Shown here one piece after another: positions 14,136-59,036 of a stretch of 64,000 nucleotides of DNA. The stretch comes from Escherichia virus TH41. The stretch's first letter is position 1. Each line of letters begins with the position of its first letter. The position numbers were made by a program, and so were the translations under genes. A model generated the notes under the pieces. The model did not search any database, was not told the origin of the DNA, and saw nothing but the letters and a program-made list of their open reading frames with translations. The stretch lies in the sequence record MT446412.1; one strand, 5' to 3'.

Positions 14136-14149
14136 GGGGCTTCGGCCCC
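14136..14149 (+). promoter_or_regulatory. UUCG-tetraloop hairpin (GGGGC-TTCG-GCCCC), no U-tract
   Basis: Perfect 5-bp stem with TTCG loop between genes 45 and 44. Confidence 0.6.
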
Positions 14150-14188
14150 ATGGAGTACAAAGTAGAAACTAATATGAGGAAAATAATA

Positions 14189-15166
14189 ATGGCAACAGTA
14201 ATTAACGGTTTGACAGTCAACGAATCCGACTTCATGTGGGAACAAAAATACCGCCCAGGTACATTATCAGAGTGTATTCTCCCGGCCCATGATAAAGAAA
14301 CATTAGAGGCGATTGTTAAAAAAGGTTTGATTCCTAACTTGATTCTGGTCAGTAGTTCCCCTGGTACTGGTAAGACAACAGTTGCAAAAGCTATGTGTGC
14401 AGATACGAATTCTGATATGCTGTTTGTTAACGGCTCCGATTGCCGAATTGACTTTGTGCGTAATGAATTGACTCGCTTTGCATCATCCAAATCAATCGAA
14501 GGTCGCCGCAAGGTAATCGTTATCGATGAGTTTGACCGTGCAGGTCTGGCTGAATCACAACGGCACCTCCGTAGCTTTATGGAAGCTTATTCGAGTAACT
14601 GTTCAATCATTATGACCGCGAACAATATTGATGGCATCATCACTCCGTTGCAGTCTCGTTGTCGCGTCATTAAGTTCGGTGAAGCAACTCCGGCTGACCA
14701 GACTACCATGATGAAAGAGATGATTCATCGTGCAGTTGCGGTATGTAAAAATGAAGGCGTTGAAATCGAAGACCTGAAAGTTGTTGCTGCTCTGGTTAAG
14801 CATAACTTCCCGGACCTGCGTAAGACAATTAACGAGCTTGACCGTTACTCTGCAAAGGGTGTTATCGATTCTGGTATTCTGAGTATCGTGACAAACAATC
14901 GCACGCCAATTGATGATGTGATTGATGCCCTTAAGGACCGTAATTTTAAAGTTCTCCGTGGTCTGGCTCCTAAGCATGCAAATGATTATTCAAGCTTCAT
15001 TGCAAAGCTGGCTGATGAAATGTATGGCAAACTGACTGGTGCAAGTATCATCCGCATGTATGAGATTGTAGGTGAGAATAATCAGTATCATGGCATTGCG
15101 GCCAATACCGAAGTTCACTTGACTTATCTGTTTGCTCAACTGGCTGGGGAAATGAAATGGCTGTAA
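14189..15166 (+). CDS. 44: Clamp loader large subunit gp44 (AAA+ ATPase)
   Basis: Walker A SSPGTGKTT, DEFDR, SRC motif; ATG 14189 preceded by GAGGAA; track start 14090 is upstream read-through. Confidence 0.92.
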   Translation: MATVINGLTVNESDFMWEQKYRPGTLSECILPAHDKETLEAIVKKGLIPNLILVSSSPGTGKTTVAKAMCADTNSDMLFVNGSDCRIDFVRNELTRFASSKSIEGRRKVIVIDEFDRAGLAESQRHLRSFMEAYSSNCSIIMTANNIDGIITPLQSRCRVIKFGEATPADQTTMMKEMIHRAVAVCKNEGVEIEDLKVVAALVKHNFPDLRKTINELDRYSAKGVIDSGILSIVTNNRTPIDDVIDALKDRNFKVLRGLAPKHANDYSSFIAKLADEMYGKLTGASIIRMYEIVGENNQYHGIAANTEVHLTYLFAQLAGEMKWL

Positions 15167-15735
15167 GTCTCTTTGATGATGACGTTCAATTAAACGAACA
15201 TGAGGTTGCGTGGAAATCACGCGACTTTAACAAAATTCAGGAATTGTCCGATTCATACAAAGAGAAAGCAGAAAATGAATTGTTCGCGATTCTTAACGAC
15301 ATAACCGTTAGCAAAAAACCACGGAACCTGATTCAATCGGAAAACTACAATAAATTCTGGCTGGATAACGCATTGAGTCAACATGTTGATTGCATCATGC
15401 AGGTGAACGTGATGAACTTAATCGGTTCCGGGTTAACAGACCAGCAGCATTATAATTATTTGCTGCATGCAGTTCCGCAAGGTAAGCGTTACGGCAAATG
15501 GGCGAAGGCTGAACCGGATGTAGTCAACGTCCAGCTTGTGCTCAAGCTTTTAATGAAATATTATACAATTAATGCAGATGATGCTTTGATGTATATGGAA
15601 ACATTGAAAGTCAAAGGTAGTCTTAAAGATGTTTTGAAAAAGACAAAAGGTCTGGTAACGGATGAATTCTTAAAGACCGTTACCAGTAATGTGAAAGAAC
15701 AAAAAGAAATTAAAAAACAAATATTGGAATGGTAA
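15157..15735 (+). CDS. 62: Clamp loader small subunit gp62
   Basis: 192 aa; overlaps gene 44 stop as in T4 operon 44-62-regA. Confidence 0.88.
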   Translation: MAVSLFDDDVQLNEHEVAWKSRDFNKIQELSDSYKEKAENELFAILNDITVSKKPRNLIQSENYNKFWLDNALSQHVDCIMQVNVMNLIGSGLTDQQHYNYLLHAVPQGKRYGKWAKAEPDVVNVQLVLKLLMKYYTINADDALMYMETLKVKGSLKDVLKKTKGLVTDEFLKTVTSNVKEQKEIKKQILEW

Positions 15736-15736
15736 A

Positions 15737-16105
15737 ATGATTGAAATTACATTAAAGCAACCTGAAGACTTCCTGAAAGTTAAAGAAACTCTGACCCGTA
15801 TGGGCATCGCAAATAATAAAGACCGTGTGCTGTACCAGAGCTGCCACATCCTCCAAAAGCAAGGTCGTTATTATATTGTTCACTTCAAAGAAATGCTGCG
15901 CATGGATGGTCGTCAGGTTGATATTGACGGTGAAGACTATCAGCGCCGTGATTCCATCGCCCAACTGCTTGAAGACTGGGGCTTAATCGCTATCAAAGAA
16001 GAAGAGCATAATGAATTGTTCGCAGTAACAAATAACTTCCGTGTTATTTCATTCAAACAAAAAGACGACTGGAAGCTCGTAGCCAAATATACAATTGGTA
16101 ATTGA
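15737..16105 (+). CDS. regA: Translational repressor RegA
   Basis: 122 aa (same as T4 RegA); immediately after gene 62. Confidence 0.88.
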   Translation: MIEITLKQPEDFLKVKETLTRMGIANNKDRVLYQSCHILQKQGRYYIVHFKEMLRMDGRQVDIDGEDYQRRDSIAQLLEDWGLIAIKEEEHNELFAVTNNFRVISFKQKDDWKLVAKYTIGN

Positions 16106-16106
16106 T

Positions 16107-16322
16107 ATGAAGCATGAAATTGAAACATGTGAACGCCTTAAAGAAGTATATGGACTTTCCCCAACTCAAACTATTTTTGACCTTTCCGAAGAACTTCAAA
16201 TAGAATTTCAAAAGGAACTCAATAAATTATTGCATCCTGGACAGAGAGTCTTCCAGGCTATGGTTAGAACTAAAGATGAAAATGGTAATCCGACCATCGA
16301 ACGTCGTACAATAGAAATTTAA
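16107..16322 (+). CDS. Hypothetical protein (71 aa)
   Basis: ATG 2 nt after regA stop; track start at 16095 is TTG. Confidence 0.45.
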   Translation: MKHEIETCERLKEVYGLSPTQTIFDLSEELQIEFQKELNKLLHPGQRVFQAMVRTKDENGNPTIERRTIEI

Positions 16323-16325: not shown

Positions 16326-16346
16326 AAAGGGACTTCGGTCCCTTTT
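16326..16346 (+). terminator. Rho-independent terminator (GGGAC-TTCG-GTCCC + TTTT)
   Basis: UUCG tetraloop hairpin with T-run; TATAAT follows at 16351-16356. Confidence 0.7.
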
Positions 16347-21790: not shown

Positions 21791-23214
21791 AAACTATTTT
21801 ATCCCAGCTACTCTTTAACAAGGAATATTTTGTTAAAGTCTGGCCATATCTGAATAACACATATTTTGAAAAGGGTCCAGCAAAGACCCTTTTTAATACG
21901 ATTAACGAACACGTAAAAGAATATCAAGCGGTACCAACTAAGACTGCACTTGATATCGCGCTCGACAGTTCTGACCTTTCTGAAGTCGAATATGAAGGCA
22001 CAAAGAAACTCTTAGGAGTCCTGGCCGATACTCCAGAAGACCAGGAATGGTTGGTTAAAGAAACCGAGAAGTATGTACAGAAGTCTGCGATGTTCAATGC
22101 CACATCCAGGATTATCGAAATCCAGAGCAATGCCGAACTTCCGAAAGATAAACGTGATAAACGAATCCCGGATATTGGTGCTATCCCTGACATCATGCGC
22201 GATGCATTGTCTATCTGTTTTGACTCTGCTCTGGGCCATGACTGGTTAAACGATTACGAAGCTCGATTCCAGACTTATCTGAACAAATCGAAGAAGGTTC
22301 CGTTCCGTATTAACATCCTGAATAAAATCACGAAGGGCGGGGTTGAGTACGGTACAGAGAACGTTTTACTGGCCGGGACGAACGTCGGCAAATCCCTTGG
22401 ACTTTGTTCGCTGGCGGCTGACTATCTTCAGACTGGTCATAATGTGCTTTATATAAGCATGGAAATGGCTGAAGAAGTATGTGCCAAACGTATTGATGCC
22501 AACTTGCTGGATGTGTCTCTGGATGATATTGATGAAGGTCATGTGTCATGGGCGGAATACAAAAGTAAGATGGAAAAATGGCGTGCAGCCGGGACCCTTG
22601 GGACTCTGAAGATAAAACAATATCCAACTGGCGGTGCTCATGCGGATACCTTCCGTGCATTGCTGAATGAATACAAACTGAAGCAAGGGTTTGTGCCGGA
22701 TGTGATTATTGTTGACTACCTGGCAATCTGTGCAAGCTCAAGACTGAAAACGTTTACCGAAAACAGTTACGGCCTGATTAAGATGGTTGCAGAAGAACTT
22801 CGTGGTCTGGCGGTCGAGAAAAATGTGGTCCTGTGGACTGCAGCGCAGACAACCAGGGGTGCGAACGTTGCAGCTGAGATTGATATGGCTGACATCGCTG
22901 AATCTTTTGGTATTGCTCACACGGCCGACTTTATGTTGGGTGTTGTTGAGACCGAAGAATTCGCTCAAATGGGACTACAGTTAATCAAACAGCTTAAGTC
23001 TCGTTACGGCGATAAGAACTACTATAATAAATTCAAGATGGGTGTTAAGAAAGGTAATCAGCGCTGGTACGAGGTTGATGATGATTCAGCTCCTAAACAA
23101 GGCCCTACGGTTAAAGAAGCCACTGGTGAGATGAATCGCCAGGCTGAAATGAATAGACAAACCAGGGTCAACAGGAGCGACCTGGACGACCTTGCTGCTC
23201 AAATGAAATTCTAA
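21784..23214 (+). CDS. 41: Replicative DNA helicase gp41 (DnaB-like)
   Basis: GTG start giving MVETILSQLLF (T4: MVEIILSHLIF); Walker A GTNVGKSLG; near-identical blocks to T4 gp41. Confidence 0.93.
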   Translation: MVETILSQLLFNKEYFVKVWPYLNNTYFEKGPAKTLFNTINEHVKEYQAVPTKTALDIALDSSDLSEVEYEGTKKLLGVLADTPEDQEWLVKETEKYVQKSAMFNATSRIIEIQSNAELPKDKRDKRIPDIGAIPDIMRDALSICFDSALGHDWLNDYEARFQTYLNKSKKVPFRINILNKITKGGVEYGTENVLLAGTNVGKSLGLCSLAADYLQTGHNVLYISMEMAEEVCAKRIDANLLDVSLDDIDEGHVSWAEYKSKMEKWRAAGTLGTLKIKQYPTGGAHADTFRALLNEYKLKQGFVPDVIIVDYLAICASSRLKTFTENSYGLIKMVAEELRGLAVEKNVVLWTAAQTTRGANVAAEIDMADIAESFGIAHTADFMLGVVETEEFAQMGLQLIKQLKSRYGDKNYYNKFKMGVKKGNQRWYEVDDDSAPKQGPTVKEATGEMNRQAEMNRQTRVNRSDLDDLAAQMKF

Positions 23215-23233
23215 AGACCTTCGGGTCTTTTTC
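23213..23233 (+). terminator. Rho-independent terminator (AAGACC-TTCG-GGTCTT + T-run)
   Basis: UUCG hairpin followed by TTTTTC directly after gp41 stop. Confidence 0.7.
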
Positions 23234-23241
23234 ATTTAGAG

Positions 23242-23274
23242 GTTTACAACACCATAAAAAGGGTGTACTATTAT
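23242..23274 (+). promoter_or_regulatory. Degenerate early promoter (GTTTAC ... TATTAT) with conserved leader
   Basis: Spacer about 21 nt (long); followed by TATCCCATCAACTACTGATGAGGATAATAAA-ATG 23303. Confidence 0.35.
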
Positions 23275-23302
23275 CCCATCAACTACTGATGAGGATAATA
23301 AA

Positions 23303-23551
23303 ATGTTATTAGTTAATGTGCAGTACCAGTTCAAATCTGAAGAAGCTCTCCAAAAGTATGCTGATATTTGTGAGCATAATAAAAGAACAGCTGCCATTGT
23401 TGGTCTGAAGCCTTTTAAAATTTTGGATTGCTCCTTGAACAGAGCAAGACGCTGGTGTAGTGTTGCCTGTCATGCTTCAGTTGAAGGGAATGATTATTTT
23501 TTCATTACTTTCAATGCACAAGATTTTCATTTAATTAATGAATTAAAATAG
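23303..23551 (+). CDS. Hypothetical protein (82 aa)
   Basis: ATG after conserved leader with GAGGA. Confidence 0.55.
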   Translation: MLLVNVQYQFKSEEALQKYADICEHNKRTAAIVGLKPFKILDCSLNRARRWCSVACHASVEGNDYFFITFNAQDFHLINELK

Positions 23552-23580
23552 TGTACAAGCCCCTTGTCTTAGGACATAAT
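23551..23580 (+). promoter_or_regulatory. Early promoter GTGTAC-N18-CATAAT (PeSL-like)
   Basis: Followed by conserved GATTCCATACTGAGTTACAC block; ATG 23630. Confidence 0.6.
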
Positions 23581-23629
23581 GATTCCATACTGAGTTACAC
23601 AATAAACCAACTGTTAAAAGGAAAACCAT

Positions 23630-23932
23630 ATGTTTAATCAAACCGATATGAACCGTTACTATTTTGGTCAGTTCGCTCGCCGTGATGAAAACTGTGCTGC
23701 TCTTATCGCATCAGGCATTCAAACTGGTAAATTAATAAAGCTCAAAAGCGATGTTCAACCTTCATCTGTTCGCAGCTCTCTTCGTGAGTATCTGCTTGCA
23801 GGCGGGGCAGTATATGTTATCGCTGAACCTTTTGTTAACGTGTGCGACGATTACACAATTAGTGTGACTGTTATGCACCCAACTACTGGGAAAATTCGTT
23901 GTCTGACTATGCACAACTATGAGTTGGCGTAA
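23630..23932 (+). CDS. Hypothetical protein (100 aa)
   Basis: ORF track. Confidence 0.55.
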   Translation: MFNQTDMNRYYFGQFARRDENCAALIASGIQTGKLIKLKSDVQPSSVRSSLREYLLAGGAVYVIAEPFVNVCDDYTISVTVMHPTTGKIRCLTMHNYELA

Positions 23933-23937
23933 GTGAA

Positions 23938-23961
23938 TAAAGGGGCTTACAGCCCCTTTTT
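23938..23961 (+). terminator. Rho-independent terminator (GGGGC-TTACA-GCCCC + T5) overlapping the next -35
   Basis: Stem plus TTTTT; loop CTTACA doubles as -35 of promoter 23946-23974. Confidence 0.65.
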
Positions 23962-26427: not shown

Positions 26428-26595
26428 ATGAAAACATTCAAAGATTTTATCAACGAAAATATGGTTGCCGGTGATGCAGGTGGAAATCCAACTAATATCG
26501 CAACAGGTACCACTTCCGGGGCAGTTGTCAATAAAGGCCCTGAACAAATCCCATCAAAAAAGCGTAAGAACAAAGACGATAAACCTACAGTATAA
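26428..26595 (+). CDS. Hypothetical protein (55 aa)
   Basis: ATG preceded by GGAAAGGGGG; under track cutoff. Confidence 0.4.
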   Translation: MKTFKDFINENMVAGDAGGNPTNIATGTTSGAVVNKGPEQIPSKKRKNKDDKPTV

Positions 26596-26627
26596 TGGTC
26601 CTCCGGGGCCATTGAAATGAGGAAACT

Positions 26628-29218: not shown

Positions 29219-29223
29219 TTATA

Positions 29224-29246
29224 GGGAACCTTCGGGTTCCCTTTTT
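29224..29246 (+). terminator. Rho-independent terminator (GGGAACC-TTCG-GGTTCCC + T5)
   Basis: 7-bp stem, UUCG loop, T-run, directly after soc. Confidence 0.75.
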
Positions 29247-29294
29247 GCTTTTAATAGAAGCGGTATAATTATTTCAATTACAGAGGAGAATACT

Positions 29295-36881: not shown

Positions 36882-36911
36882 GTGTACAAACTCGTGGGGC
36901 CAGAGTATAAT
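36882..36911 (+). promoter_or_regulatory. Early promoter GTGTAC-N18-TATAAT with -10 inside inverted repeat GTGGGGCC/GGTCCCAC
   Basis: Read directly; ATG 36954. Confidence 0.6.
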
Positions 36912-36953
36912 GGTCCCACTGGAGAATAAACTTATTAATCAAGAGAGAAAATT

Positions 36954-38087: not shown

Positions 38088-38088
38088 C

Positions 38089-38265
38089 ATGCCACTTTAT
38101 GATTACAAATGCCAATCCAATGACTGCGCGAAAGAATACGAAAAAATCAAGAAAATCTCTGAAAGAGATAATGATGTTTGCCCTGATTGCCATCGGCTGG
38201 CTGTTCGGTTAGTCTCGGCTCCTAAACATGTTAATGGCGGTTTTTACGACCTGCTGACTAAGTGA
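38089..38265 (+). CDS. Zinc-ribbon protein (FmdB-like CxxC...CxxC, 58 aa)
   Basis: MPLYDYKCQSNDCAKEYE...CPDCH pattern; ATG preceded by AGGA; under track cutoff. Confidence 0.5.
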   Translation: MPLYDYKCQSNDCAKEYEKIKKISERDNDVCPDCHRLAVRLVSAPKHVNGGFYDLLTK

Positions 38266-38271
38266 GGAATT

Positions 38272-38532
38272 ATGAAATACATTAATCGTTCTATTGCAGC
38301 ACTGGTACTGGCGGTTTCATTGGCTGGTTGTACTGATGCAGATAATGCCATTCGTGTATTAGATGCAAACGGCTATGAGCAAATCCAAATCACCGGATAT
38401 AATTGGTTCTCTTGCGGTAAAGATGATTTTCAACACACAGGTTTTACAGCCGTGGGCCCAACTGGTAAGAAAGTTGAAGGAACCGTTTGTTCTGGATTGC
38501 TGTTTAAGAATTCAACCATCCGATTCGAATGA
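38272..38532 (+). CDS. Putative lipoprotein (86 aa)
   Basis: Signal peptide with lipobox LAGC. Confidence 0.5.
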   Translation: MKYINRSIAALVLAVSLAGCTDADNAIRVLDANGYEQIQITGYNWFSCGKDDFQHTGFTAVGPTGKKVEGTVCSGLLFKNSTIRFE

Positions 38533-38539
38533 GGATATT

Positions 38540-38938
38540 ATGTTTAAAATTGGAAAGAGTTATTGCATTAAAGATTTAGATGGCTTCCTTAAACATGTCG
38601 GTATGCCTGGTAGCATTTTGAACCAACAAGGAACCTCTATCATTGATTTGGTTACTACCAAAGAGTTTTCAGTCACTAAGATGGAAGCAAATGTTGTTAC
38701 GGAATTTAGTACTATAGATGGAACTGGATTTTCTTTCCATAGTCGTAATGGAACCGGTCTTATTTTTGGTGATGAATTTAAATATTTTGAAGAAGTCCCG
38801 GAATGTGATTCTGAAATAACCGAACAGGAATCAAAAGAGGATATCGTTGTTACCGGCGGCGATGTTATTATTACGGTTAAAACTGAAGCCGGCCGTCTAC
38901 AAGCTATTAAAATGTTAGAGCAGCTTCGATTCAAATAA
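38540..38938 (+). CDS. Hypothetical protein (132 aa)
   Basis: ATG preceded by GAGGA; track start 38363 is in-frame read-through. Confidence 0.5.
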   Translation: MFKIGKSYCIKDLDGFLKHVGMPGSILNQQGTSIIDLVTTKEFSVTKMEANVVTEFSTIDGTGFSFHSRNGTGLIFGDEFKYFEEVPECDSEITEQESKEDIVVTGGDVIITVKTEAGRLQAIKMLEQLRFK

Positions 38939-38957
38939 AAGGCCTTCGGGCCTTTTT
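38937..38957 (+). terminator. Rho-independent terminator (GGCC-TTCG-GGCC + T5)
   Basis: UUCG hairpin with T-run directly after stop. Confidence 0.65.
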
Positions 38958-38981
38958 GCTTTAAAATATGTGACTTATAAT
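38955..38981 (+). promoter_or_regulatory. Candidate MotA-dependent middle promoter upstream of gene 39 (TTTGCTTTA box, 14-nt gap, TATAAT)
   Basis: Exact match to remembered MotA-box consensus; TATAAT 38976-38981. Confidence 0.5.
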
Positions 38982-39006
38982 ACCTCCATACACAAGAGGA
39001 AAGATG

Positions 39007-40836
39007 ATGATTAATAATGAAATTAAAGTACTCTCGGACGTCGAGCATATCAAAAAACGTTCCGGGATGTATATTGGTTCCAGTTCAAATGAAGCGCATG
39101 AGCGATTCTTGTTTGGTGAATATAAGTCTGTAAGCTATGTTCCTGGTATTGTAAAACTGATTGATGAAATTATCGATAACTCTGTTGATGAAGCAATTCG
39201 CACCAGTTTTAAATTTGCCAATAAAATTGATGTTCAAATTAAAGATAATCAGATTTCGGTTTCTGATAATGGTCGTGGTATTCCTCAAGCAATGGTTACA
39301 GACCAAAACGGTGAACAAATCCCTGGCCCTGTTGCAGCATGGACTATTCCAAAAGCCGGTGGCAACTTCGGTGATGATGCTGAACGTAAAACTGGCGGGA
39401 TGAATGGTGTCGGGTCTTCTCTGACCAATATTTTCTCTGTATTGTTCACCGGGATTACCTCTGATGGAGCAAACGAAATTACTGTTAACTGCTCCAACGG
39501 TATGGAAAACAAAGGTTGGTCCACCAAGAAATCTAAGGGCAAAGGTACAACTGTTATATTTGTTCCAGATTTTAGTCACTTTGAAGAAAATAGTCTGTCC
39601 CAGATTTATCTGGATATTACATTGGACCGTTTACAGACTCTCGCGGTTGTTTATCCGGATATTCAGTTCACCTTTAATGGTAAAAAGGTTGATGGTAATT
39701 TCAAGAAGTTCTCCAAGCAATTCGGAACCGAAGTTGTTATCCAGGAAACTGATACAGTATCAATGGCTTTTACGACCAGCCCGGATGGTTTCCGTCAGTT
39801 GACTTATGTCAACAACATTCATACAAAGAATGGCGGACACCACGTTGAATGTGTTATGGATGATATCTGTGAACACCTTCAGCCTGCGATTAAGCGCAAA
39901 TATAAAGGCATCGAGGTGACCAAGGCACGAGTTAAAGAATGCCTCACCATGCTTATGTTCATCCGCGATATGAGCAACATGCGATTTGATTCCCAGACCA
40001 AGGAGCGATTGACTTCTCCGGCTGGTGAAATTCGAAATCACATTAAGATTGATGCTAAGAAAATCGCACAAGCTATTCTGAAAAATGAACCGCTGATTAT
40101 GCCGATTGTTGAAGCTGCATTGGCTCGTAAATTGGCTGCAGAGAAAGCAGCAGAGACCAAGGCGAATAAGAAAGCTTCGAAGGCCAAGGTGCAGAAACAC
40201 ATCAAGGCAAACGAATGGGGCAATGATAAGCTGGAAACGACTCTATTCCTGACCGAAGGGGATTCTGCAACTGGTCCATTTATCAAGGTTCGCGACCGTG
40301 AATTGCAAGGTGCTTATCCATTACGTGGTAAGTTTAAAAACACATGGGGTCTGAAAGCTGTTGAAGTTATGAAGAACGCTGAAGCCTTTGATGTGTGTGC
40401 AATTACTGGGTTAACGATTGGACAACCGGCCGAGAATATGAATTACCGAAACATTGCTATCATGACAGATGCGGATGTGGATGGTGTCGGTAGTATCTAT
40501 CCATCGTTATTGGCGTTTTTCAGTAACTGGCCAGAGTTGTTCCATGAAGGACGAATTCGCTTTGTGAAAACACCTGTTATTATTGCACAGCTCAAAGATA
40601 AACAAGAATGGTTCTATTCTCTTCCTGACTATGAAGAAGCTAAGGATAAACTTCCGAAGCACACCATCCGATATATCAAGGGGCTTGGTTCTCTGGAAGA
40701 TTCCGAGTACAAACGCGTATTGCTCGAACCGGTATTCGAAGTTGTTCAATTGCCCGACAACTGGAAAGAACTGTTCGAAATGCTATTCGGTAAAGATTCC
40801 CAGCAGCGTAAAGACTGGATGAATGCGACGCTATAA
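39007..40836 (+). CDS. 39: DNA topoisomerase II large subunit (GyrB-like), continuous equivalent of T4 gp39 + gp60
   Basis: 609 aa from second ATG; GHKL ATPase motifs; T4 gp39 is shorter and completed by gp60, here one uninterrupted ORF. Confidence 0.9.
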   Translation: MINNEIKVLSDVEHIKKRSGMYIGSSSNEAHERFLFGEYKSVSYVPGIVKLIDEIIDNSVDEAIRTSFKFANKIDVQIKDNQISVSDNGRGIPQAMVTDQNGEQIPGPVAAWTIPKAGGNFGDDAERKTGGMNGVGSSLTNIFSVLFTGITSDGANEITVNCSNGMENKGWSTKKSKGKGTTVIFVPDFSHFEENSLSQIYLDITLDRLQTLAVVYPDIQFTFNGKKVDGNFKKFSKQFGTEVVIQETDTVSMAFTTSPDGFRQLTYVNNIHTKNGGHHVECVMDDICEHLQPAIKRKYKGIEVTKARVKECLTMLMFIRDMSNMRFDSQTKERLTSPAGEIRNHIKIDAKKIAQAILKNEPLIMPIVEAALARKLAAEKAAETKANKKASKAKVQKHIKANEWGNDKLETTLFLTEGDSATGPFIKVRDRELQGAYPLRGKFKNTWGLKAVEVMKNAEAFDVCAITGLTIGQPAENMNYRNIAIMTDADVDGVGSIYPSLLAFFSNWPELFHEGRIRFVKTPVIIAQLKDKQEWFYSLPDYEEAKDKLPKHTIRYIKGLGSLEDSEYKRVLLEPVFEVVQLPDNWKELFEMLFGKDSQQRKDWMNATL

Positions 40837-40839
40837 ATA
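40832..40839 (+). promoter_or_regulatory. TATAAATA late-promoter motif overlapping gene 39 stop
   Basis: Exact TATAAATA; followed by 10-bp palindrome ACGGGAGAAT/ATTCTCCCGT and SD-ATG 40879. Confidence 0.3.
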
Positions 40840-40878
40840 GATACGGGAGAATATTCTCCCGTCTTATAGGAGAAGTCC

Positions 40879-41031
40879 ATGAAAAAGTGGTGGGTTACGT
40901 TGTCAAATGGCGAATACGGTTATCTGTGGGCCGATACTAAACCCCTGTTTGCATCCTTTGTCACCATTATGTGCGAGACCTGGGATGGTGAATACTATAC
41001 CGCGTATGGGCAAGTCTATAAAGTTGAGTAG
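40879..41031 (+). CDS. Hypothetical protein (50 aa)
   Basis: ATG preceded by AGGAGAAG; followed by terminator; under track cutoff. Confidence 0.4.
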   Translation: MKKWWVTLSNGEYGYLWADTKPLFASFVTIMCETWDGEYYTAYGQVYKVE

Positions 41032-41033
41032 CC

Positions 41034-41057
41034 AAAAGGACCTTCGGGTCCTTTTTT
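41034..41057 (+). terminator. Rho-independent terminator (GGACC-TTCG-GGTCC + T6)
   Basis: UUCG hairpin plus TTTTTT. Confidence 0.75.
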
Positions 41058-41060
41058 ATT

Positions 41061-41090
41061 ATGTACAAGCCATAAAAATTGCGTTAAGAT
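41061..41090 (+). promoter_or_regulatory. Early promoter ATGTAC-N18-TAAGAT
   Basis: Same architecture as GTGTAC family; ATG 41108 after GAGGTGAAAAT. Confidence 0.45.
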
Positions 41091-41107
41091 GTCCTTGAGG
41101 TGAAAAT

Positions 41108-41392
41108 ATGATTATGTCTGACGGAAGTTTAGTTAATCTACAGAATGTTGCTCGTTGTATTATGGAAGCAGGCCTGAGGAAGGTGCAGGAGCTCCCAGAT
41201 AGCGACAGGAAGCGAAGTTACTTGTTGGCTGTAAGAGCATCAGCCATGAGCATTAAGGCTGGCCAGAAGGTTCCTGAGGAGCGAATTGAAGCACTCCTTG
41301 CATTGATATACCATGGCCAAGAACATAAAGCTACCATGCGTAGTATGAGAAAAATATTACAGGAGATTGGAAATGACGAACTTCAAAGTTAA
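41108..41392 (+). CDS. Hypothetical protein (94 aa)
   Basis: ORF track. Confidence 0.5.
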   Translation: MIMSDGSLVNLQNVARCIMEAGLRKVQELPDSDRKRSYLLAVRASAMSIKAGQKVPEERIEALLALIYHGQEHKATMRSMRKILQEIGNDELQS

Positions 41393-41576
41393 TATGGAAC
41401 TGTTTGATAAGGCTATCCATAAAGAGTACCGTGTTATCCAACGATTTTTTGATATAAGAGAAGCTGAAGAGTTTAAAGAACGCTTCAAAGAAATCCGTAT
41501 TAAAATAGCTTCAGACACCGCAACAAAGGATGAACTTCTTGAAGTTGCAGAATTAATCAAACGTAACATAAAGTGA
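41370..41576 (+). CDS. Hypothetical protein (68 aa)
   Basis: ATG preceded by GGAG; track start 41367 is TTG. Confidence 0.45.
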   Translation, partial: EMTNFKVNMELFDKAIHKEYRVIQRFFDIREAEEFKERFKEIRIKIASDTATKDELLEVAELIKRNIK

Positions 41577-41583
41577 GAAAAAC

Positions 41584-43818
41584 ATGATTTTAGAAACTGA
41601 AAAGGAAACAATCCTTGGTAATGGTGCCAAGGCATCAGCATTCACAATCCAGGCATCTCCAAAGGTGTTTAAGATTCTGACCAGCGACCTTTATACAAAC
41701 AAGGTGCGTGCGGTTGTTCGTGAGCTGATTACCAATATGATTGATGCTCATATGCTCAATGGTTGTCAGGATAAATTCATTGTGCAAGCTCCTGGTGAAC
41801 TGGACCCACGTTTTGTATGCCGTGACTTTGGTCCGGGTATGAGTGATTTCCAGATTCGTGGTGATGAAAATACCCCAGGTCTGTATAACAGTTTCTTTGC
41901 ATCATCCAAGGCTGAATCCAACGATTTTATTGGCGGCTTTGGTCTGGGCTCTAAATCTCCGTTCAGTTATACAGAGACGTTTAGCCTGATTTCATATCAC
42001 GATGGTCAAGTTAATGGTTATGTCGCTTATATGGACGGCGATGGCCCACAGATTAAACCAACCTTTAGCGAACCAATGAAACCTGGTGACCGCACGGGGA
42101 TTGAAGTTGTTGTCCCGGTTGATAGTAATGATTTTGGTAAGTTCCGCTACGAGATTGCATATATCATGCGTCCATTTGCTGGACTGGCTGAAGTGCAAGG
42201 CGTAAGCGAAATTGAATACTTCCCGGAATTTGATGATTATTATGCTCCAGAGCGTATTAATTATAGCAGCCCAGAACGTTATGGTCTTTATGCAATTTAC
42301 GGTGGAATTGTTTATCCAATTGCCGACGGTTATACAAAGAAAACCTGGATGACTGCCAAAAACGATGTTGTCTTTATTAAGTTCCCGATGGGTTCGTTGG
42401 ATATTGCACCTTCTCGCGAAGCATTATCACTGGATAAACGTACGGTCGCAAATATCGTTGAACGTATTGAATCCCTTGATAAGAAAGTCATGGAAGATGA
42501 TTGTAAGAAATGGCAGGAATCAGAATGTATCCGCCACACGTATCGCGAATTACAGAGTCTGAGTTATGAAGCTCGTAATTTTCTGAAAGCTCGTAATGCT
42601 GAAACGAAATTTACGAAATCGCAATTGACCTTTAACCAGATGTATGAAATGTTCGAGCTGGACAAAGACCTTATTAATGCCGGGGTTGTCTATGATATCT
42701 ATAGCACTACCCGTCTGAAACGTCTGCGTAACTCAAGCTCGAACACGAATACTGCAAGTCTGACGAGCATGTTTGGTATTCAGAATAATACCTTGAACAT
42801 TGTTATTGACGATGCTAAAGGGCGAATTGCGATGATTCGTGGTATCAGTTCAATGCTATATGACACCAGCGCGAAAGCCAAAAAGCTCAAAGCATCTGGT
42901 AAAGTCCCGACTGTACAAGGTAGTAGTCTATTGTTCGTTGACCCAACCAGCGAAATTCAAACACGTCTGATGGTTCAACTTCAAGAACGATTTAAAGGCG
43001 ATACAGTTAATATCTATCGTACGTCTGAACTGACCGCCCTTGTAAAAGACTGGATTCCGGTTGCTGACCCGAAAGCGCGCGTTAAGTCAAAGACTCCATC
43101 ATTGATTCGTTGGACTAAAACTAATGGCAAATGGCAGTCTGTTGAAGAATTTACATGTGCAGCTGATGCAGAGGAAATCGATGGTTATGCTGTATTCATT
43201 AACCGCAGTAGCATTTCCCCGTTGAATCAAGAATATGGCACCACGACCTTCGGGACCCAGACATTGTGTAAACTGGCAAACCTGTTGGAAATCAATGAAT
43301 TCTGTGTTATTCGTCCACAGCTTCAGAAAAAGATTACCAAGCTGGCGCAGTGTGATTGTCTGATTGAAGCTGCAGTCAATCGTTATGTGGAATTGATTGA
43401 TGCGGTTGATGCGGACCAGTACATTGCCGCTTCAAGCCGTTCGCGTTATTATATTCCTATCCTGTCTGAATATGCAGAACTGAATTTTATGTTCAAGTAT
43501 TTTTATGCAAAAGATGTTCAGAAAGATGTGAATACTGACTATGCCGAATTAATGCAGTTCAATAAGTTCTTTGCTTATAACGCATATAACAGTGGAACAG
43601 TTGATAAGACCATGCAGGAAACTCTGGTCCTTTGTAATAAGATTTATGACGACCTGACCAAAAACGCTTCGGTAACAAGCGATAAAATGGTTTTTGAATT
43701 TGAAAAGAATCACCCGATTGTTTCACACTTTTTATATAACCGTAACGCCATGTCAACTGAACAAGTACAGAACGTTGCTCAAATCATGAAGGCCGTGGAA
43801 GCGGCCAATAAGGAATAA
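41584..43818 (+). CDS. rIIA: rIIA protein (membrane-associated, GHKL ATPase-like N-terminal domain)
   Basis: 744 aa; N-terminal HATPase-like motifs; follows gene 39 and precedes rIIB as in T4. Confidence 0.85.
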   Translation: MILETEKETILGNGAKASAFTIQASPKVFKILTSDLYTNKVRAVVRELITNMIDAHMLNGCQDKFIVQAPGELDPRFVCRDFGPGMSDFQIRGDENTPGLYNSFFASSKAESNDFIGGFGLGSKSPFSYTETFSLISYHDGQVNGYVAYMDGDGPQIKPTFSEPMKPGDRTGIEVVVPVDSNDFGKFRYEIAYIMRPFAGLAEVQGVSEIEYFPEFDDYYAPERINYSSPERYGLYAIYGGIVYPIADGYTKKTWMTAKNDVVFIKFPMGSLDIAPSREALSLDKRTVANIVERIESLDKKVMEDDCKKWQESECIRHTYRELQSLSYEARNFLKARNAETKFTKSQLTFNQMYEMFELDKDLINAGVVYDIYSTTRLKRLRNSSSNTNTASLTSMFGIQNNTLNIVIDDAKGRIAMIRGISSMLYDTSAKAKKLKASGKVPTVQGSSLLFVDPTSEIQTRLMVQLQERFKGDTVNIYRTSELTALVKDWIPVADPKARVKSKTPSLIRWTKTNGKWQSVEEFTCAADAEEIDGYAVFINRSSISPLNQEYGTTTFGTQTLCKLANLLEINEFCVIRPQLQKKITKLAQCDCLIEAAVNRYVELIDAVDADQYIAASSRSRYYIPILSEYAELNFMFKYFYAKDVQKDVNTDYAELMQFNKFFAYNAYNSGTVDKTMQETLVLCNKIYDDLTKNASVTSDKMVFEFEKNHPIVSHFLYNRNAMSTEQVQNVAQIMKAVEAANKE

Positions 43819-43819
43819 T

Positions 43820-44794
43820 ATGTTTAATATCAAATGTATGTCTAAAGCCGAACAAGCTGATGTGGTCCAGATGTATTCAACGGGCAATTATACCCAGCCT
43901 GAATTGGCAGAATATTTTGCTGTGTCCGTTGACACCATTCGTCGCGTTTTGAAAAATGATAAAGAATCAAAATTAGCTAAAACCATTTCTGCATCACTGA
44001 AAGCCGCTGTCGGGGTGGCGATTAATGCTCCGGTGACAGTAACGGTTGAAGTCCCGGTTGTTGAAGATACAATCGGCGGTAGCCGTCCAGAAATCGTATG
44101 GAACGCCTCAAGCAAATTCGTTTCCATCACTGAAGGTCGTACAGTCTGGAACGCAACAAAAGACCATAAACACTTTGATGATATTATTCAGGCACTCAAA
44201 GAATCTCGTTTTGATGATGCTATCGAGTTTATCTCAATCAAAGCTGCAGTACAAAAATATGTGAAAGGTGATGTGCGTATTGAAGGTGGTAGTTTGTTCT
44301 ATCAGGGAATTGAACTGCGCTCTGGCCTGGTTACTCGTATCATTGATTCAATGCAAAATGGCGAAGACTTTGAATTCTATCTACCGTTCCTTGAGAATCT
44401 CCTTGAGAACCCGAGTGAGAAAGCCGTACAGCGTTTGTTTGACTTCCTGGTTGCGAACGATATCGAAATCACCGAAGACGGCCATTTCATCGCATGGAAA
44501 ATGGTTCGTGCAACTTACAAAGATTGTCACTCAAACACATTCGACAACAGCCCTGGTCAATATGTTAAAATGCCGCGCTCTCGTGTGAATGATAATGACG
44601 AACAGACCTGTTCAACCGGGTTGCATGTTTGCTCTAAAGGCTATATCGGAAGTGGTTTTGGTCATGGTGATGGACGCATCGTATCCTGTAAAGTTCACCC
44701 GCGTGATGTTGTAAGTATCCCGGTTGATTATAACGATTCCAAAATGCGGGTCTGTGGTTACCTGGTTCTTGATGATGTAACTGAACAATTCTAA
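43820..44794 (+). CDS. rIIB: rIIB protein
   Basis: 324 aa; N-terminus MFNIKCMSKAEQADVVQMYSTGNYTQPELAEYFAVSVDTIRRVLKN matches remembered T4 rIIB. Confidence 0.85.
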   Translation: MFNIKCMSKAEQADVVQMYSTGNYTQPELAEYFAVSVDTIRRVLKNDKESKLAKTISASLKAAVGVAINAPVTVTVEVPVVEDTIGGSRPEIVWNASSKFVSITEGRTVWNATKDHKHFDDIIQALKESRFDDAIEFISIKAAVQKYVKGDVRIEGGSLFYQGIELRSGLVTRIIDSMQNGEDFEFYLPFLENLLENPSEKAVQRLFDFLVANDIEITEDGHFIAWKMVRATYKDCHSNTFDNSPGQYVKMPRSRVNDNDEQTCSTGLHVCSKGYIGSGFGHGDGRIVSCKVHPRDVVSIPVDYNDSKMRVCGYLVLDDVTEQF

Positions 44795-44801
44795 ATTAAT
44801 C

Positions 44802-44815
44802 GGGGCTTCGGCCCC
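44802..44815 (+). promoter_or_regulatory. UUCG-tetraloop hairpin (GGGGC-TTCG-GCCCC), no U-tract
   Basis: Identical hairpin sequence to 14136-14149. Confidence 0.55.
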
Positions 44816-44827
44816 TAATGAGGCTTT

Positions 44828-45025
44828 ATGTTAGGTTTCCAAGCACGTGTAGTTGAAGAACATGACCAGCTGGTTTTGAAAATCAATGCTCTTGAAGAAT
44901 TTATTAAGGGCGGTGTTTTTGAAACTCTCGATGCTCGTCAACAAGGTCTTTTGATTGCCCAGTTAGATGCGATGGGCGCATATGCTCATATTCTGGCAAC
45001 TCGTATCTCTTATTTTGGTGAATAA
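44828..45025 (+). CDS. Hypothetical protein (65 aa)
   Basis: ATG preceded by GAGG. Confidence 0.5.
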   Translation: MLGFQARVVEEHDQLVLKINALEEFIKGGVFETLDARQQGLLIAQLDAMGAYAHILATRISYFGE

Positions 45026-45028
45026 ATT

Positions 45029-45349
45029 ATGATTAACTATATGAACGTTGGCGATGAATCTATTAATGAAATTCGGTTGCATGGTAATCATGTTGCGGAT
45101 ATTGTTTATTGTGTTGATTGTCATTATGCTTCTACAAAGTCAACTGGCCGGTTATATGCGAGAGACATCATTCTTGCAACGAAAGAAGAACTTCGTAGTC
45201 TGGACCATTCTACTCTAGCCGAAAGTGCCAGAATTTATTATGGCGTCGTTCATGTAGACAAAGTTTATATTGGCAGTGATTATCAAGAGCAAGCTGAGCA
45301 AAATTCTTTGGATATTGTCGAAAAATCCGATATGTATTTTAAAGGATGA
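45029..45349 (+). CDS. Hypothetical protein (106 aa)
   Basis: ORF track. Confidence 0.5.
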   Translation: MINYMNVGDESINEIRLHGNHVADIVYCVDCHYASTKSTGRLYARDIILATKEELRSLDHSTLAESARIYYGVVHVDKVYIGSDYQEQAEQNSLDIVEKSDMYFKG

Positions 45350-45353
45350 GCTG

Positions 45354-45947
45354 ATGATTCAGAAGAGTAAAACATGGGAGCATCTGAAAAAGATGCCCTC
45401 CTTTCTTTATACAAAGGAAGACTTAACCCCCGAATCCCTGCAAAAGATTGTAGATACAGCCAGGTATTCATTGCGTAAAGACCCGGGTCAGGACCGTGAG
45501 CAAGTCATGCAAAGATGTATGGTGGCTACAATGGCTGAACAAGCTATTGCTAAATGGACTTCAGGTTTTTTATGTGGCGGTGATGAAGATTACGATAATC
45601 CTTATTCCTTTGCATTTGATGTAGTTTCGAAGGAAGGGGTAAGAATCGAAGTCAAGACTCATCAGTCTGGTTCCAAATGGATATCCGTACATACTGGTCA
45701 CCAGGGTGATTATCCACATGGTTACGGGGTTAATCTTGGCCCTTTTATGCAGCACAAGCTTGCTGACCTTATGATTATGTTTAATGTAAAAGAGACTCTC
45801 AAAGGTTATAGATTTAAACCAAAATTCCTTGCTGGGCCTGGTGCTTTCGTTCCTGAGTCTGGTCTTGTGCAGAAATCACAAGGGGATGGCTGGTACCTCC
45901 GTTCTTGTTCAGAAGAAAAATTTCCCTATCACCGGTTTACAAGCTGA
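45354..45947 (+). CDS. Hypothetical protein (197 aa); size and position compatible with T4 denB
   Basis: ATG preceded by GGATGAG; no sequence-level recognition. Confidence 0.5.
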   Translation: MIQKSKTWEHLKKMPSFLYTKEDLTPESLQKIVDTARYSLRKDPGQDREQVMQRCMVATMAEQAIAKWTSGFLCGGDEDYDNPYSFAFDVVSKEGVRIEVKTHQSGSKWISVHTGHQGDYPHGYGVNLGPFMQHKLADLMIMFNVKETLKGYRFKPKFLAGPGAFVPESGLVQKSQGDGWYLRSCSEEKFPYHRFTS

Positions 45948-45964
45948 ACCAACTGTGTAATAAT
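45935..45964 (+). promoter_or_regulatory. Early promoter GTTTAC-N17-TAATAAT
   Basis: Inside 3' end of previous ORF; followed by RBS-containing hairpin. Confidence 0.4.
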
Positions 45965-45991
45965 GTCCTCATACCAACAAATGAGGACATT
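45962..45991 (+). promoter_or_regulatory. Perfect 11-bp stem-loop (AATGTCCTCAT/ATGAGGACATT) with the SD GAGGA in its 3' arm
   Basis: Read directly; ATG 45995 is 3 nt after the stem. Confidence 0.6.
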
Positions 45992-45994
45992 ATC

Positions 45995-46270
45995 ATGGAA
46001 CACGTTACTACTCACAACATCAAACAAATTCTTATCCAAGCACTCAAAAACAACAACATCAATTTTCCAACCCATGAAATTTTTGATGTAGCATTCAACG
46101 AAGTCCAGGGTCAAGTTGCATATTATGACGTTATCGTTTATCTTTCAGAATTTGAAGTCTACCACCTGACTGAAATTGCTTTCTATCTCTATCGTGGGAC
46201 TGCAGATTTTACTGGGGTCGTGAATGCAGTTGGCGCATATAAAGAAGTTAAAGAACAAATGCACAATTAA
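45995..46270 (+). CDS. Hypothetical protein (91 aa)
   Basis: ATG in frame within track ORF 45905..46270. Confidence 0.5.
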   Translation: MEHVTTHNIKQILIQALKNNNINFPTHEIFDVAFNEVQGQVAYYDVIVYLSEFEVYHLTEIAFYLYRGTADFTGVVNAVGAYKEVKEQMHN

Positions 46271-47498: not shown

Positions 47499-47527
47499 TG
47501 TACAAACTCATGGGAGCAGAGTATAAT
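47498..47527 (+). promoter_or_regulatory. Early promoter GTGTAC-N18-TATAAT with -10 flanked by imperfect inverted repeat
   Basis: Near-identical to cassettes at 36882 and 47910; ATG 47566. Confidence 0.6.
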
Positions 47528-47565
47528 GTTCCCGTGGATAATAAAATTTAATTGAGGAAAATATT

Positions 47566-47910: not shown

Positions 47911-47939
47911 TGTACAAACTCTTGGGGTCAGAGTATAAT
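47910..47939 (+). promoter_or_regulatory. Early promoter GTGTAC-N18-TATAAT with -10 inside perfect 8-bp inverted repeat TGGGGTCA/TGACCCCA
   Basis: Read directly; ATG 47984. Confidence 0.6.
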
Positions 47940-47983
47940 GACCCCACTGGAGCACAAAACTTTAACTTACTGAGGAAATTAAT

Positions 47984-48434: not shown

Positions 48435-48608
48435 ATGAGACATTTCTTTACAATGGGTTACCTATTTGTTTTAGCCCTATTTGTTATTACAGGAGCCTTT
48501 ATAGCCTTTGGTGCTCCATTTAATGATAAAGTTGCTGTTACTATGTGCTTTAGTGGTGGGTATATCTGTTTTGAACGCTTATGCAAAATGTGTGGTATAT
48601 ATGAGTAA
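48435..48608 (+). CDS. Hypothetical small membrane protein (57 aa)
   Basis: ATG 2 nt after ndd stop; hydrophobic. Confidence 0.35.
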
Positions 48609-48688
48609 TTTCCATAACGAACATGTGATGCAATGGCATCGTCATAATCTGAAATTAACCGGCGTCTTCGGACGTCCTTGAGGAAAAT

Positions 48689-50457: not shown

Positions 50458-50480
50458 TAGGACCCTTCGGGGTCCTTTTT
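50458..50480 (+). terminator. Rho-independent terminator (GGACCC-TTCG-GGGTCC + T5)
   Basis: 6-bp stem, UUCG loop, T-run. Confidence 0.75.
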
Positions 50481-55016: not shown

Positions 55017-55027
55017 AAAAACCTCCA

Positions 55028-55041
55028 GGGCCCGAAGGCCC
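55028..55041 (-). promoter_or_regulatory. UUCG-tetraloop hairpin (GGGCC-UUCG-GGCCC) between genes 37 and 38
   Basis: Read on minus strand; followed by SD GGAGG and gene 38 ATG, no U-tract. Confidence 0.55.
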
Positions 55042-55045
55042 TTTC

Positions 55046-58000: not shown

Positions 58001-58312
58001 TATCTGACCCGCGGCAATAATATCGCGAGCTACACGAGCAATGCCGGTTAAATTAAAATCACCAGTTTGGGTAAAAGTACCATTCAGGGTATAATCACCA
58101 GTTTGATTGTAATTACCGTTATGAATAACATTACCATCAATATTACCGCCTTTGGCAAAACCAAGGTCGATAATGGCGCCGGTGTCATCTTTAGTAAAAA
58201 GTAAGCGGTCTTTCAGGTTGATAGCCAGTTCACCTTCAGCAAGAACTGTTGGCGCCGGACGAACGCCGGCAACCTTACTTCTTTTAAATTGTATTTGTTT
58301 TAAAGTAGCCAT
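55046..58312 (-). CDS. 37: Long tail fibre distal subunit gp37
   Basis: 1088 aa; N-terminus [36 protein letters not shown] matches remembered T4 gp37; C-terminus differs. Confidence 0.93.
55049..55363 (-). other. C-terminal intramolecular chaperone / autoproteolysis domain (peptidase S74-like) of gp37
   Basis: Motifs [11 protein letters not shown] and [15 protein letters not shown] in last 105 residues. Confidence 0.6.
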
Positions 58313-58320
58313 AATGCCTC

Positions 58321-58968
58321 TTAATAATATCCAAAATCTTGTACGGAGTCTTTAAGAACGATTTGGTCAAAACGAGGCACATGGGCCGGGTCTGATGCTG
58401 GGTTCCTAGAGAAGAAATTAGGTGCTGACAAGTTACCTGTCATTGTTTGCAATGTACTATTATTTAGTTCTACCTGTTGCTGGTTAGTTACATTACCAAG
58501 ACCAACTTGAGCTTTTGACGGAGTATTCCCTGGAGAAAATACACGACCTGTTTCATCATAAATTTGTCGAGCTAACGTATCACCCATAACAGTAAGACGT
58601 TTTGCTCCTGTCGTAGTATCAGGGTCAAAAATAACAAATGGTGTTCCCGTTTCAGTCTCAAATCCGAATGGTCCTTTAATACGGAAAGATGCTGTAAATG
58701 GTGTTCCGCCTGTTCTTGCTCCTAACTTAATCCCGTAACCATTTGAATCGTTAAATGTCAGACCCTGTTCGAAATACACATTTGCTTTATAATTACCACC
58801 CAGAGCTTTAGAAACAAAATCGTTATCGACTGCTTGTGGCTTGTTATATTCGGAATAAATTTTATAAGTTTTGAAATATAAGTCATTACTGACTGGTGTT
58901 AATGGGAAATTACCCTGGTGCCAGAGGACCGAACCTCCGGCTGTTGAGCCTAGTTTTAAATCTGCCAT
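58321..58968 (-). CDS. 36: Long tail fibre distal connector gp36
   Basis: 215 aa; N-terminus MADLKLGSTAGGSVLWHQGNFPL and C-terminus PRFDQIVLKDSVQDFGYY match remembered T4 gp36. Confidence 0.92.
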   Translation of the reverse strand: MADLKLGSTAGGSVLWHQGNFPLTPVSNDLYFKTYKIYSEYNKPQAVDNDFVSKALGGNYKANVYFEQGLTFNDSNGYGIKLGARTGGTPFTASFRIKGPFGFETETGTPFVIFDPDTTTGAKRLTVMGDTLARQIYDETGRVFSPGNTPSKAQVGLGNVTNQQQVELNNSTLQTMTGNLSAPNFFSRNPASDPAHVPRFDQIVLKDSVQDFGYY

Positions 58969-59003
58969 TTATAAGTCCTCTTCAACCGGCATATGATATT
59001 TTG

Positions 59004-59011
59004 TATTTATA
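59004..59011 (-). promoter_or_regulatory. Late promoter TATAAATA upstream of gene 36
   Basis: Exact TATAAATA on minus strand about 35 nt upstream of gene 36 ATG. Confidence 0.6.
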
Positions 59012-59014
59012 ACG

Positions 59015-59036
59015 AAAAAAGGACTCCGAAGAGTCC
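59015..59036 (-). terminator. Rho-independent terminator after gene 35 (GGACUC-UUCG-GAGUCC + U6)
   Basis: Read on minus strand; hairpin plus U-run. Confidence 0.7.

Follow-up and report, generated by a model that had tools for sequence, protein, structure and literature searches.

Palindromes centred on CTTCGG recur between the genes of Escherichia virus TH41, and the question they raise is whether they act in the mRNA and, if so, in what capacity. They are considered here in a stretch of 64,000 nucleotides of the phage DNA (sequence record MT446412.1), called the window below and numbered from its first letter. The original prediction, made from the letters of this stretch, listed ten such hairpins and took seven of them for likely intrinsic terminators and three for RNA-stability or processing elements. 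The ten are very probably the C(UUCG)G hairpins long known from the intercistronic regions of T-even phages, and act in mRNA, seven as Rho-independent terminators and three as boundaries within the message. The evidence for this reading consists of direct observations of the presence of the hairpins, their non-random occurrence, sense orientation, predicted stability, conservation with covariation, and promoter context. The class of elements is already known, its T4 members having been reported in 1988 (Tuerk et al., PNAS 85:1364); according to PMC8948821, which cites that work, the intergenic regions of T4 are rich in CUUCGG hairpins, at which reverse transcriptase stops, and the UUCG tetraloop is frequent and stabilizing in T4 intergenic stem-loops such as terminators (PMC1702504). 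The original prediction was therefore correct in calling these hairpins a known feature of T4 transcripts; what is added here is their orthology with the T4 hairpins and the placement of the U-tract hairpins within terminator-promoter cassettes.

The window belongs to a T4-like coliphage of the genus Gaprivervirus (Tevenvirinae) and shows 97% identity to Escherichia phage DK-13 in an 8-kb comparison (window positions 38000-46000). Its + strand carries early and middle genes (45, 44, 62, regA, 43, uvsX, 41, 61, soc, modA/B, dda, dexA, 39, rIIA, rIIB, denB, ndd, 52, motA, and asiA), and the late genes t, 38, 37, 36, 35, and 34 lie on the - strand from ca. 53546 onward. All ten predicted hairpins were found at their positions and on the strands assigned to them. 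The perfect stems are located at 14134-14151, 16326-16345, 23213-23230, 29223-29242, 38937-38956, 41034-41055, 44802-44815, and 50459-50476 on the + strand, and at 55027-55042 and 59020-59037 on the - strand; below, each hairpin is named by the first coordinate of its stem. All have the C(UUCG)G form, with perfect Watson-Crick GC-rich stems of 5-9 base pairs (bp) and a C-G closing pair, and all are situated at gene junctions, being either intergenic or overlapping a stop codon. Each hairpin lies in a block transcribed from its own strand, eight in the + block and two in the - block, and for each of the ten the mRNA made from the locally transcribed strand contains UUCG, not CGAA. A U-tract (4-6 T directly after the GC core) is present in seven hairpins (16326, 23213, 29223, 38937, 41034, 50459, and 59020) and absent from three (14134, 44802, and 55027), so the tails read at all ten match the predicted seven-to-three division.

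Could these palindromes have arisen by chance in an AT-rich genome? The hexamer CTTCGG occurs 36 times in the window against 17.7 ± 3.7 expected. Perfect hairpins with a TTCG loop on a stem of at least 5 bp, including at least 3 G-C pairs, number ten, against a mean of 0.10 and a maximum of 2 in 300 dinucleotide-preserving shuffles. Only the shortness of each element speaks for chance; the shuffle test, together with the retention of the hairpins at orthologous junctions described below, refutes it and leaves it practically no probability. Among the tetraloops on GC-rich stems TTCG also predominates by a wide margin, the next-best loop having n=2. Of the strong sense-strand hairpins catalogued with a free energy of at most -8 kcal/mol, 28 were assigned to intergenic sequence, and a UUCG loop caps 8 of these; hairpin 41034 stands outside the intergenic class, since a spurious open reading frame (ORF) causes it to be classed as coding, and 23213, at -7.6 kcal/mol, narrowly misses the cut-off.

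The folding energies, which the original prediction had proposed as a check, agree with it, as each of the ten sequences folds into the predicted hairpin in its native context. By nearest-neighbour prediction, the minimum free energy (MFE) of context segments of 44-52 nucleotides (nt) amounts to -11 to -16 kcal/mol, and that of the hairpins alone to -7.6 to -13.3 kcal/mol. A search of the whole window with Rfam covariance models at the gathering score gave no match, as expected, because the hairpins are simple.

The comparison with relatives comprises 56 loci from ca. 25 T4-like genomes, with junctions extracted by means of flanking-protein anchors. T4 itself has a UUCG hairpin at seven of the ten orthologous junctions (45/44, regA/43, soc/mrh.2, 39.1/39, rIIB/denB.1, 37/38, and 35/36), and the remaining three contain other hairpins or are variable; judged by their junctions, most copies in the window are orthologous to T4's own hairpins. 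Every junction retains some hairpin across the relatives, mostly with a UUCG loop, and the stems differ between lineages via paired, compensatory substitutions. At the 45/44 junction compensatory change is seen in seven of seven pairs, with 98% of cells paired, while the respective values are three of seven pairs and 100% upstream of gene 43, and two of five pairs and 100% downstream of rIIB; at none of these three junctions does any of 500 shuffles reach the covariation score. When all loci are pooled, UUCG makes up about half of the perfect GC-rich tetraloop hairpins, in 101 unique contexts, 65 with a U-tract and 36 without. Where a UUCG hairpin has a single internal non-Watson-Crick position, this is G.U in seven cases and A.C in none. 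The latter ratio and the strand bias of ten out of ten therefore point to selection on the sense RNA and not on a DNA palindrome.

From the GC stem with its adjacent U-tract, the location after a stop codon, and the promoter-like element that comes next, we conclude that the seven U-tract hairpins are putative intrinsic terminators, each closing one transcription unit, as originally predicted; termination itself we infer from this layout. The promoter-like elements, which are consensus matches only, lie within ca. 40 nt downstream of each of the seven, and the same terminator-promoter layout is found at the orthologous T4 junctions. In the proposed mechanism, the short GC stem, to which the UUCG tetraloop gives unusual stability, would act with the U-tract to end a transcription unit, and the promoter of the next unit would follow directly. 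In T4-like phages, composite elements of a stem-loop and an early promoter (PeSL) or a stem-loop and a Mot box (PmSL) have been described (Comeau et al. 2014, PMC4122927; Arbiol et al. 2010, PMC2839356), and the U-tract hairpins, by their sequence context, are the stem-loop halves of such terminator-promoter cassettes. The cassettes of 23213, 41034, and 50459 are of the early type, those of 29223 and 38937 of the Mot-box type, and 59020 is followed by the late element TATAAATA.

Hairpin 29223, AGGGAACC[UUCG]GGUUCCCU, lies after soc, between it and an ORF, and its U-tract continues into the MotA-box-like UUUGCUUUU, with TATAAT 11 nt beyond. At this junction a UUCG hairpin is present in 14 of 14 distinct sequences of relatives, T4 included, on five different stems. 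Hairpin 38937, AAAAGGCC[UUCG]GGCCUUUU, is placed between an ORF and gp39, upstream of gene 39; its U-tract is merged with the MotA box TTTGCTTTA, followed after 12 nt by TATAAT. The T4 ortholog before gene 39 is AAAGGCC[UUCG]GGCCUUU, and some relatives have CUAGU or UAAC loops there instead. TTTGCTTTA fits the MotA box consensus, (a/t)(a/t)TGCTT(t/c)a (PMC2988021). A single T-run shared by a terminator and a middle promoter is seen on the + strand at 9380-9430, 29223-29275, and 38937-38990; all three runs enter a MotA box (TTTGCTTTA), and a -10 element comes 11-13 nt later. PmSL cassettes of this kind are known from vibriophage nt-1 (PMC4122927). The gene downstream of 38937 codes for the topoisomerase large subunit as a single ORF of 610 amino acids (39004-40836, + strand), and the 39/60 split of T4, with its 50-nt translational bypass and the UUCG hairpin belonging to it (T4 2837-2854), is absent here.

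Among the early-type cassettes, hairpin 23213, AAAGACC[UUCG]GGUCUUU with a U-tract, overlaps the gp41 stop codon at the junction of gp41 with an ORF and is followed by TTTACA-N17-TACTAT; DK-13 lacks both this hairpin and the two ORFs that come after it, and T4 has a different, long hairpin after gene 41. Hairpin 41034, AAAAGGACC[UUCG]GGUCCUUUU with a 6-U tract, lies between gp39 and rIIA, in a variable region, and precedes TGTACA-N17-TAAGAT; in close relatives the junction contains the same UUCG hairpin or one with a different stem, and in more distant ones hairpins with other loops. Downstream of gp52, hairpin 50459, AGGACCC[UUCG]GGGUCCU with the tail UUUUUAUUUU, is followed by TGTACA-N17-CATAAT, and the orthologous terminator of T4, after gene 52/motA.1, has the same UUUUUUAUUUUAAAAA tail and a CGAG loop.

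Hairpin 59020, AGGACUC[UUCG]GAGUCCU with a 6-U tract, overlaps the gp35 stop codon at the gp35/gp36 junction, and 9 nt further on, before gene 36, comes the late-promoter consensus TATAAATA, exactly as in T4, where the ortholog reads GGGACCC-UUCG-GGUUCCC followed by UUUUU and TATAAATA; the relatives have UUCG or GAAA loops at this junction. Hairpin 16326, AAAGGGAC[UUCG]GUCCCUUU, is situated between a small ORF after regA and gp43, upstream of gene 43 (DNA polymerase, 16408). Its tail, UUUUGUAG, is followed 6 nt downstream by TATAAT, i.e., by a -10 element only, and the orthologs in T4 and the relatives have UUCG or UACG loops on covarying stems.

The cassettes also raise the possibility that the main function of the palindromes is exerted in the DNA, where they would be sites of recombination or protein binding, for example crossover points in the shuffling of modules between PeSLs. 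PeSLs have indeed been proposed as recombination sites (PMC4122927, PMC2839356). The two extra ORFs after gp41 (23303-23551 and 23630-23932), absent from DK-13, constitute an indel (window 23231-23960 versus 4583-4660 of locus L001) which is flanked on either side by a stem-loop/promoter cassette, the two having the leader ATCAACTACTG in common, in line with the pattern proposed for PeSL-mediated shuffling; moreover, in one relative the 45/44 hairpin is directly followed by an inserted ORF for a putative Seg-like homing endonuclease. A mainly DNA-level function is nevertheless very unlikely, as it does not account for the strict strand bias (sense UUCG in ten of ten), for the presence of G.U wobbles where A.C mismatches do not occur, or for stems that covary while the loop is kept. 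Action in the mRNA thus remains the preferred reading, and recombination at the cassettes is plausible as a by-product rather than the primary function. The 11-mer ATCAACTACTG has seven exact copies in the window, all on the + strand (5705, 23278, 23981, 24901, 31702, 35840, and 46903), the chance expectation being ca. one match even with one mismatch allowed. Each of the copies whose context was inspected (5705, 23278, and 23981) is part of a 5' leader and comes shortly after a promoter-like -10 element, and the 11-mer is also found in the leader of T4 motA.

The three hairpins without a U-tract require a different account. The first, 14134, ATGGGGC[UUCG]GCCCCAU, lies between gp45 and gp44 on the + strand. 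It starts 3 nt past the gp45 stop codon (14128-14130), has GGAGUA directly on its 3' side, and ends 24 nt before the Shine-Dalgarno sequence (SD) of gene 44 (GAGG at 14176; ATG at 14189), the spacer being a RegA-operator-like AAUAAUAAUG. The MFE of its 48-nt context segment is -14.2 kcal/mol. The hairpin is present in 12 of 12 distinct junction sequences of relatives, with covariation in all seven pairs and a U-tract in none; the T4 ortholog, GAGGGC[UUCG]GCCUUU, has two G.U pairs. The second, 44802, GGGGC[UUCG]GCCCC, is placed on the + strand 7 nt past the rIIB stop codon; the ORF that follows (ATG at 44828) has its SD, GAGG, 4 nt beyond the hairpin. Clear-stem UUCG hairpins occur at this junction in 13 of 16 distinct sequences of relatives, several of them with U-tracts, and the T4 copy at rIIB/denB.1 is weak and bulged. 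The third, 55027, AGGGCC[UUCG]GGCCCU, located on the - strand between gp37 and gp38, has no adjacent U-tract; it starts 3 nt past the gp37 stop codon and is immediately followed by GGAGG-N5-AUG of gene 38, which codes for a T2-type adhesin. It is kept in 10 relatives with UUCG, CUCG, or UUAG loops, and the order hairpin, GGAGG, 5 nt, ATG is found in the window and in 10 of 10 relatives with a T2-type gene 38.

One way to unite all ten hairpins, the three that lack a canonical U-tract included, is to regard them as transcription terminators or attenuators that vary in strength. The U-tracts found after the rIIB hairpin in several relatives agree with this, and a partial stop at 45/44 would fit a presumed need for more clamp than clamp loader. 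Intrinsic termination, however, requires a U-rich tract adjoining the stem (PMC2988021), and no relative has one at 45/44 or directly after the 37/38 hairpin, which makes termination by all ten unlikely. Since several relatives have a U-tract at the rIIB junction, the hairpin there may be a weak or degenerate terminator. For the three as a group, the original prediction of RNA-stability or processing elements stands in its general part: a non-terminator role in the RNA is the better reading, because 45/44 never has a U-tract and the 37/38 hairpin always directly precedes GGAGG-N5-ATG. The specific role is one that we infer.

The proximity to ribosome-binding sites (RBS) suggests another role for these hairpins, namely that of promoting translation initiation at the downstream gene, as the initiation-enhancing structures of T4 genes 38 and 25 do. 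Hairpins 44802 and 55027 end 4 nt and 0 nt, respectively, before an SD, and the same layout is shown by a hairpin of the UNCG class before gene 61, UAAUGGUCC[UCCG]GGGCCAUUG (26593-26614, + strand). This hairpin, which has a 9-bp stem and no U-tract, was not listed in the original prediction; it lies 4 nt before the gene 61 SD (AAAUGAGG), and its 52-nt context segment has an MFE of -17.8 kcal/mol (z -3.8). In T4 gene 38, a hairpin enhances translation by bringing the SD and AUG together, cutting their spacing from 22 to 5 nt (PMC3014915). A UUCG hairpin is present at 37/38 in T4 as in the window, but the T4 order is GGAG, hairpin, AUG, with the SD on the 5' side, while in the window the SD (GGAGG) is on the 3' side of the hairpin with a normal 5-nt spacing to the AUG; besides, gene 38 of the window codes for a T2-type adhesin unrelated to T4 gene 38. 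The split-RBS mechanism is thereby inapplicable to the window arrangement and ruled out for 55027. As the hairpin is found at 37/38 under both SD arrangements, its role is argued to be independent of the split RBS. Furthermore, the 45/44 hairpin is 24 nt away from the gene 44 SD, and in a tightly packed genome any intergenic hairpin inevitably comes close to the next SD. A role in translation initiation is on balance doubtful, though it deserves more weight than termination by all ten.

The reading preferred for the three hairpins is that of stable structural boundaries in polycistronic mRNA, set between a stop codon and the next RBS, which most likely do not release RNA polymerase. Such boundaries would block 3'-to-5' exonucleases after a downstream cleavage, so that the upstream cistron (gene 45, rIIB, or gene 37) would be stabilised, and they would keep the adjacent SD from pairing with upstream sequence. 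Judging from general knowledge of bacterial mRNA decay, they probably serve as stabilisers or insulators in this manner.

The copies at 14136 (within the stem of 14134) and 44802 were originally described as identical in sequence, which holds for the 14-nt core GGGGCTTCGGCCCC and not for the flanks, which differ. The possibility that they are copies of one repeat was rejected, as only the core matches and the junctions vary independently in the relatives. Because the two junctions of the relatives carry different, independently changing stems, the identity amounts to convergence in a very small sequence space. The GGCTTCGG core was also considered as a MotA box of a promoter downstream of 14136 or 44802 and rejected, there being no properly spaced -10 element. 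Read in antisense, 55027-55042 (+ strand) and 14134-14151 (- strand) have T-rich runs next to them (TTTCTTAT and TTATTAAT), and on the - strand a scan for terminators picked out the 14151-14134 site. These T-runs could in principle serve the termination of antisense or convergent transcription, for instance of early + transcripts passing asiA into t/38.

For the 45/44 junction a more specific, mildly new but speculative proposal can be made: together with the unpaired GGAGUA on its immediate 3' side, the hairpin may constitute a processing module in which the RegB endoribonuclease cuts just after the hairpin. If so, the result would be a hairpin-capped, exonuclease-resistant gene 45 mRNA whose level is uncoupled from the RegA-controlled message of genes 44 and 62, and a UUCG hairpin lacking a U-tract with an adjacent GGAG/SD might be a general device of T4-like phages for setting the stoichiometry of neighbouring cistrons. 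GGAGUA is kept, while the stem covaries, in the relatives most like the window and in a group with 74-76% gp45 identity, as computed over the C-terminal 150 residues used as the anchor. On the other hand, it is absent from T4 and from the group with ca. 63% identity, and it matches the RegB consensus GGAGAAUAAAA in only 8 of 11 positions; processing by RegB at this site is accordingly rated as distinctly improbable, slightly below termination by all ten hairpins.

Two observations adjoin this subject. The ORF inserted between the 45/44 hairpin and gene 44 in one very close relative (locus L005, 10700-11275; ca. 190 amino acids) takes its SD from the GGAG that adjoins the hairpin on the 3' side (GGAGAAUAAAAUG), and its N-terminus, judged by eye, looks like that of a GIY-YIG/Seg-type homing endonuclease. 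Matches to the RegB cleavage consensus GGAGAAUAAAA (PMC1702504) occur also elsewhere in the window, as four homologous early-promoter-like cassettes on the + strand (AGTGTACAAACTC ... GAGTATAAT; 6667-6688, 36894-36919, 47508-47537, and 47923-47946) each precede GGAGAAUAAA or GGAUAAUAAA. In these cassettes an inverted repeat surrounds the -10 element and places TATAAT in the loop of a hairpin, a fold which could form only in read-through transcripts coming from upstream; a similar promoter-in-hairpin is found in T4 after gene 41.

An eleventh UUCG hairpin, with a 6-bp stem, lies at 48661-48676 within the 26-codon stp gene (48601-48681, + strand). In T4, stp codes for an activator of the host PrrC anticodon nuclease. 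The hairpin sequence encodes the conserved GVFGR, the T4 peptide ending in ...GVFGRQ, and the stp stop codon overlaps the next SD. It was considered as a fourth SD-adjacent element and rejected, since it is situated inside the stp coding sequence; its absence from the original prediction was thus right.

Several points weigh against the overall reading of the ten hairpins as seven terminators and three mRNA boundaries. The fold z-scores of the short context segments are modest (-1.2 to -4.2), and the U-tract of 16326 (UUUUGUAG) is short. The best hairpin per junction was picked for the covariation counts, so that the percentage of paired cells is inflated, the diversity of stems at a fixed junction being unaffected by this choice. 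The same junctions contain substitute loops in the relatives (UACG, GAAA, GCAA, CGAG, CUCG, UUAG, and CUAGU), and the property under selection therefore appears to be a stable hairpin and not UUCG as such. For the three hairpins that lack a U-tract, the proposed roles stand side by side as rival readings, and a literature search for a genome-wide T4 3'-end map or Term-seq data found none.

As a discovery the set has little weight. Its value is that of a quantified confirmation that T-even phages mark the boundaries of gene units with short UUCG-capped hairpins, with covarying stems, sense-strand bias, and G.U wobbles indicating selection at the RNA level. The hairpins also help in the annotation of T4-like genomes that are as yet unannotated, as each U-tract hairpin flags a terminator and then the next promoter, and those at 45/44, 37/38, and rIIB/next ORF are good candidates for work on differential mRNA stability within phage operons.

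Compared with the intrinsic terminators of E. coli and its phages, the seven U-tract hairpins show the same GC-rich stem, tetraloop, adjacent run of 4-6 U, and location at gene 3' ends; the differences are the three hairpins that have no U-tract and the short stems (5-9 bp), which depend on the tetraloop for stability. Their cassettes resemble PeSLs and PmSLs in that downstream of the stem-loop comes either a promoter of the early TTTACW-N17-TAYWAT type or a TGCTT Mot box with a -10 element, whereas no promoter follows the three hairpins lacking a U-tract; the published T4/PST consensus stems are of the type AGNA-loop-TCNT, and the UUCG loop is unmentioned in the text of the paper that describes them. 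The nearest known system is that of the T4 C(UUCG)G hairpins, which share with those of the window the motif, the intergenic location, and the phage subfamily. T4 lacks the UUCG copy between gene 41 and the next ORF and has a CGAG loop after gene 52, and the phage of the window, its gene 39 being unsplit, lacks the gene 60 bypass hairpin of T4; apart from stems altered by compensatory changes, nothing essential differs between the two.

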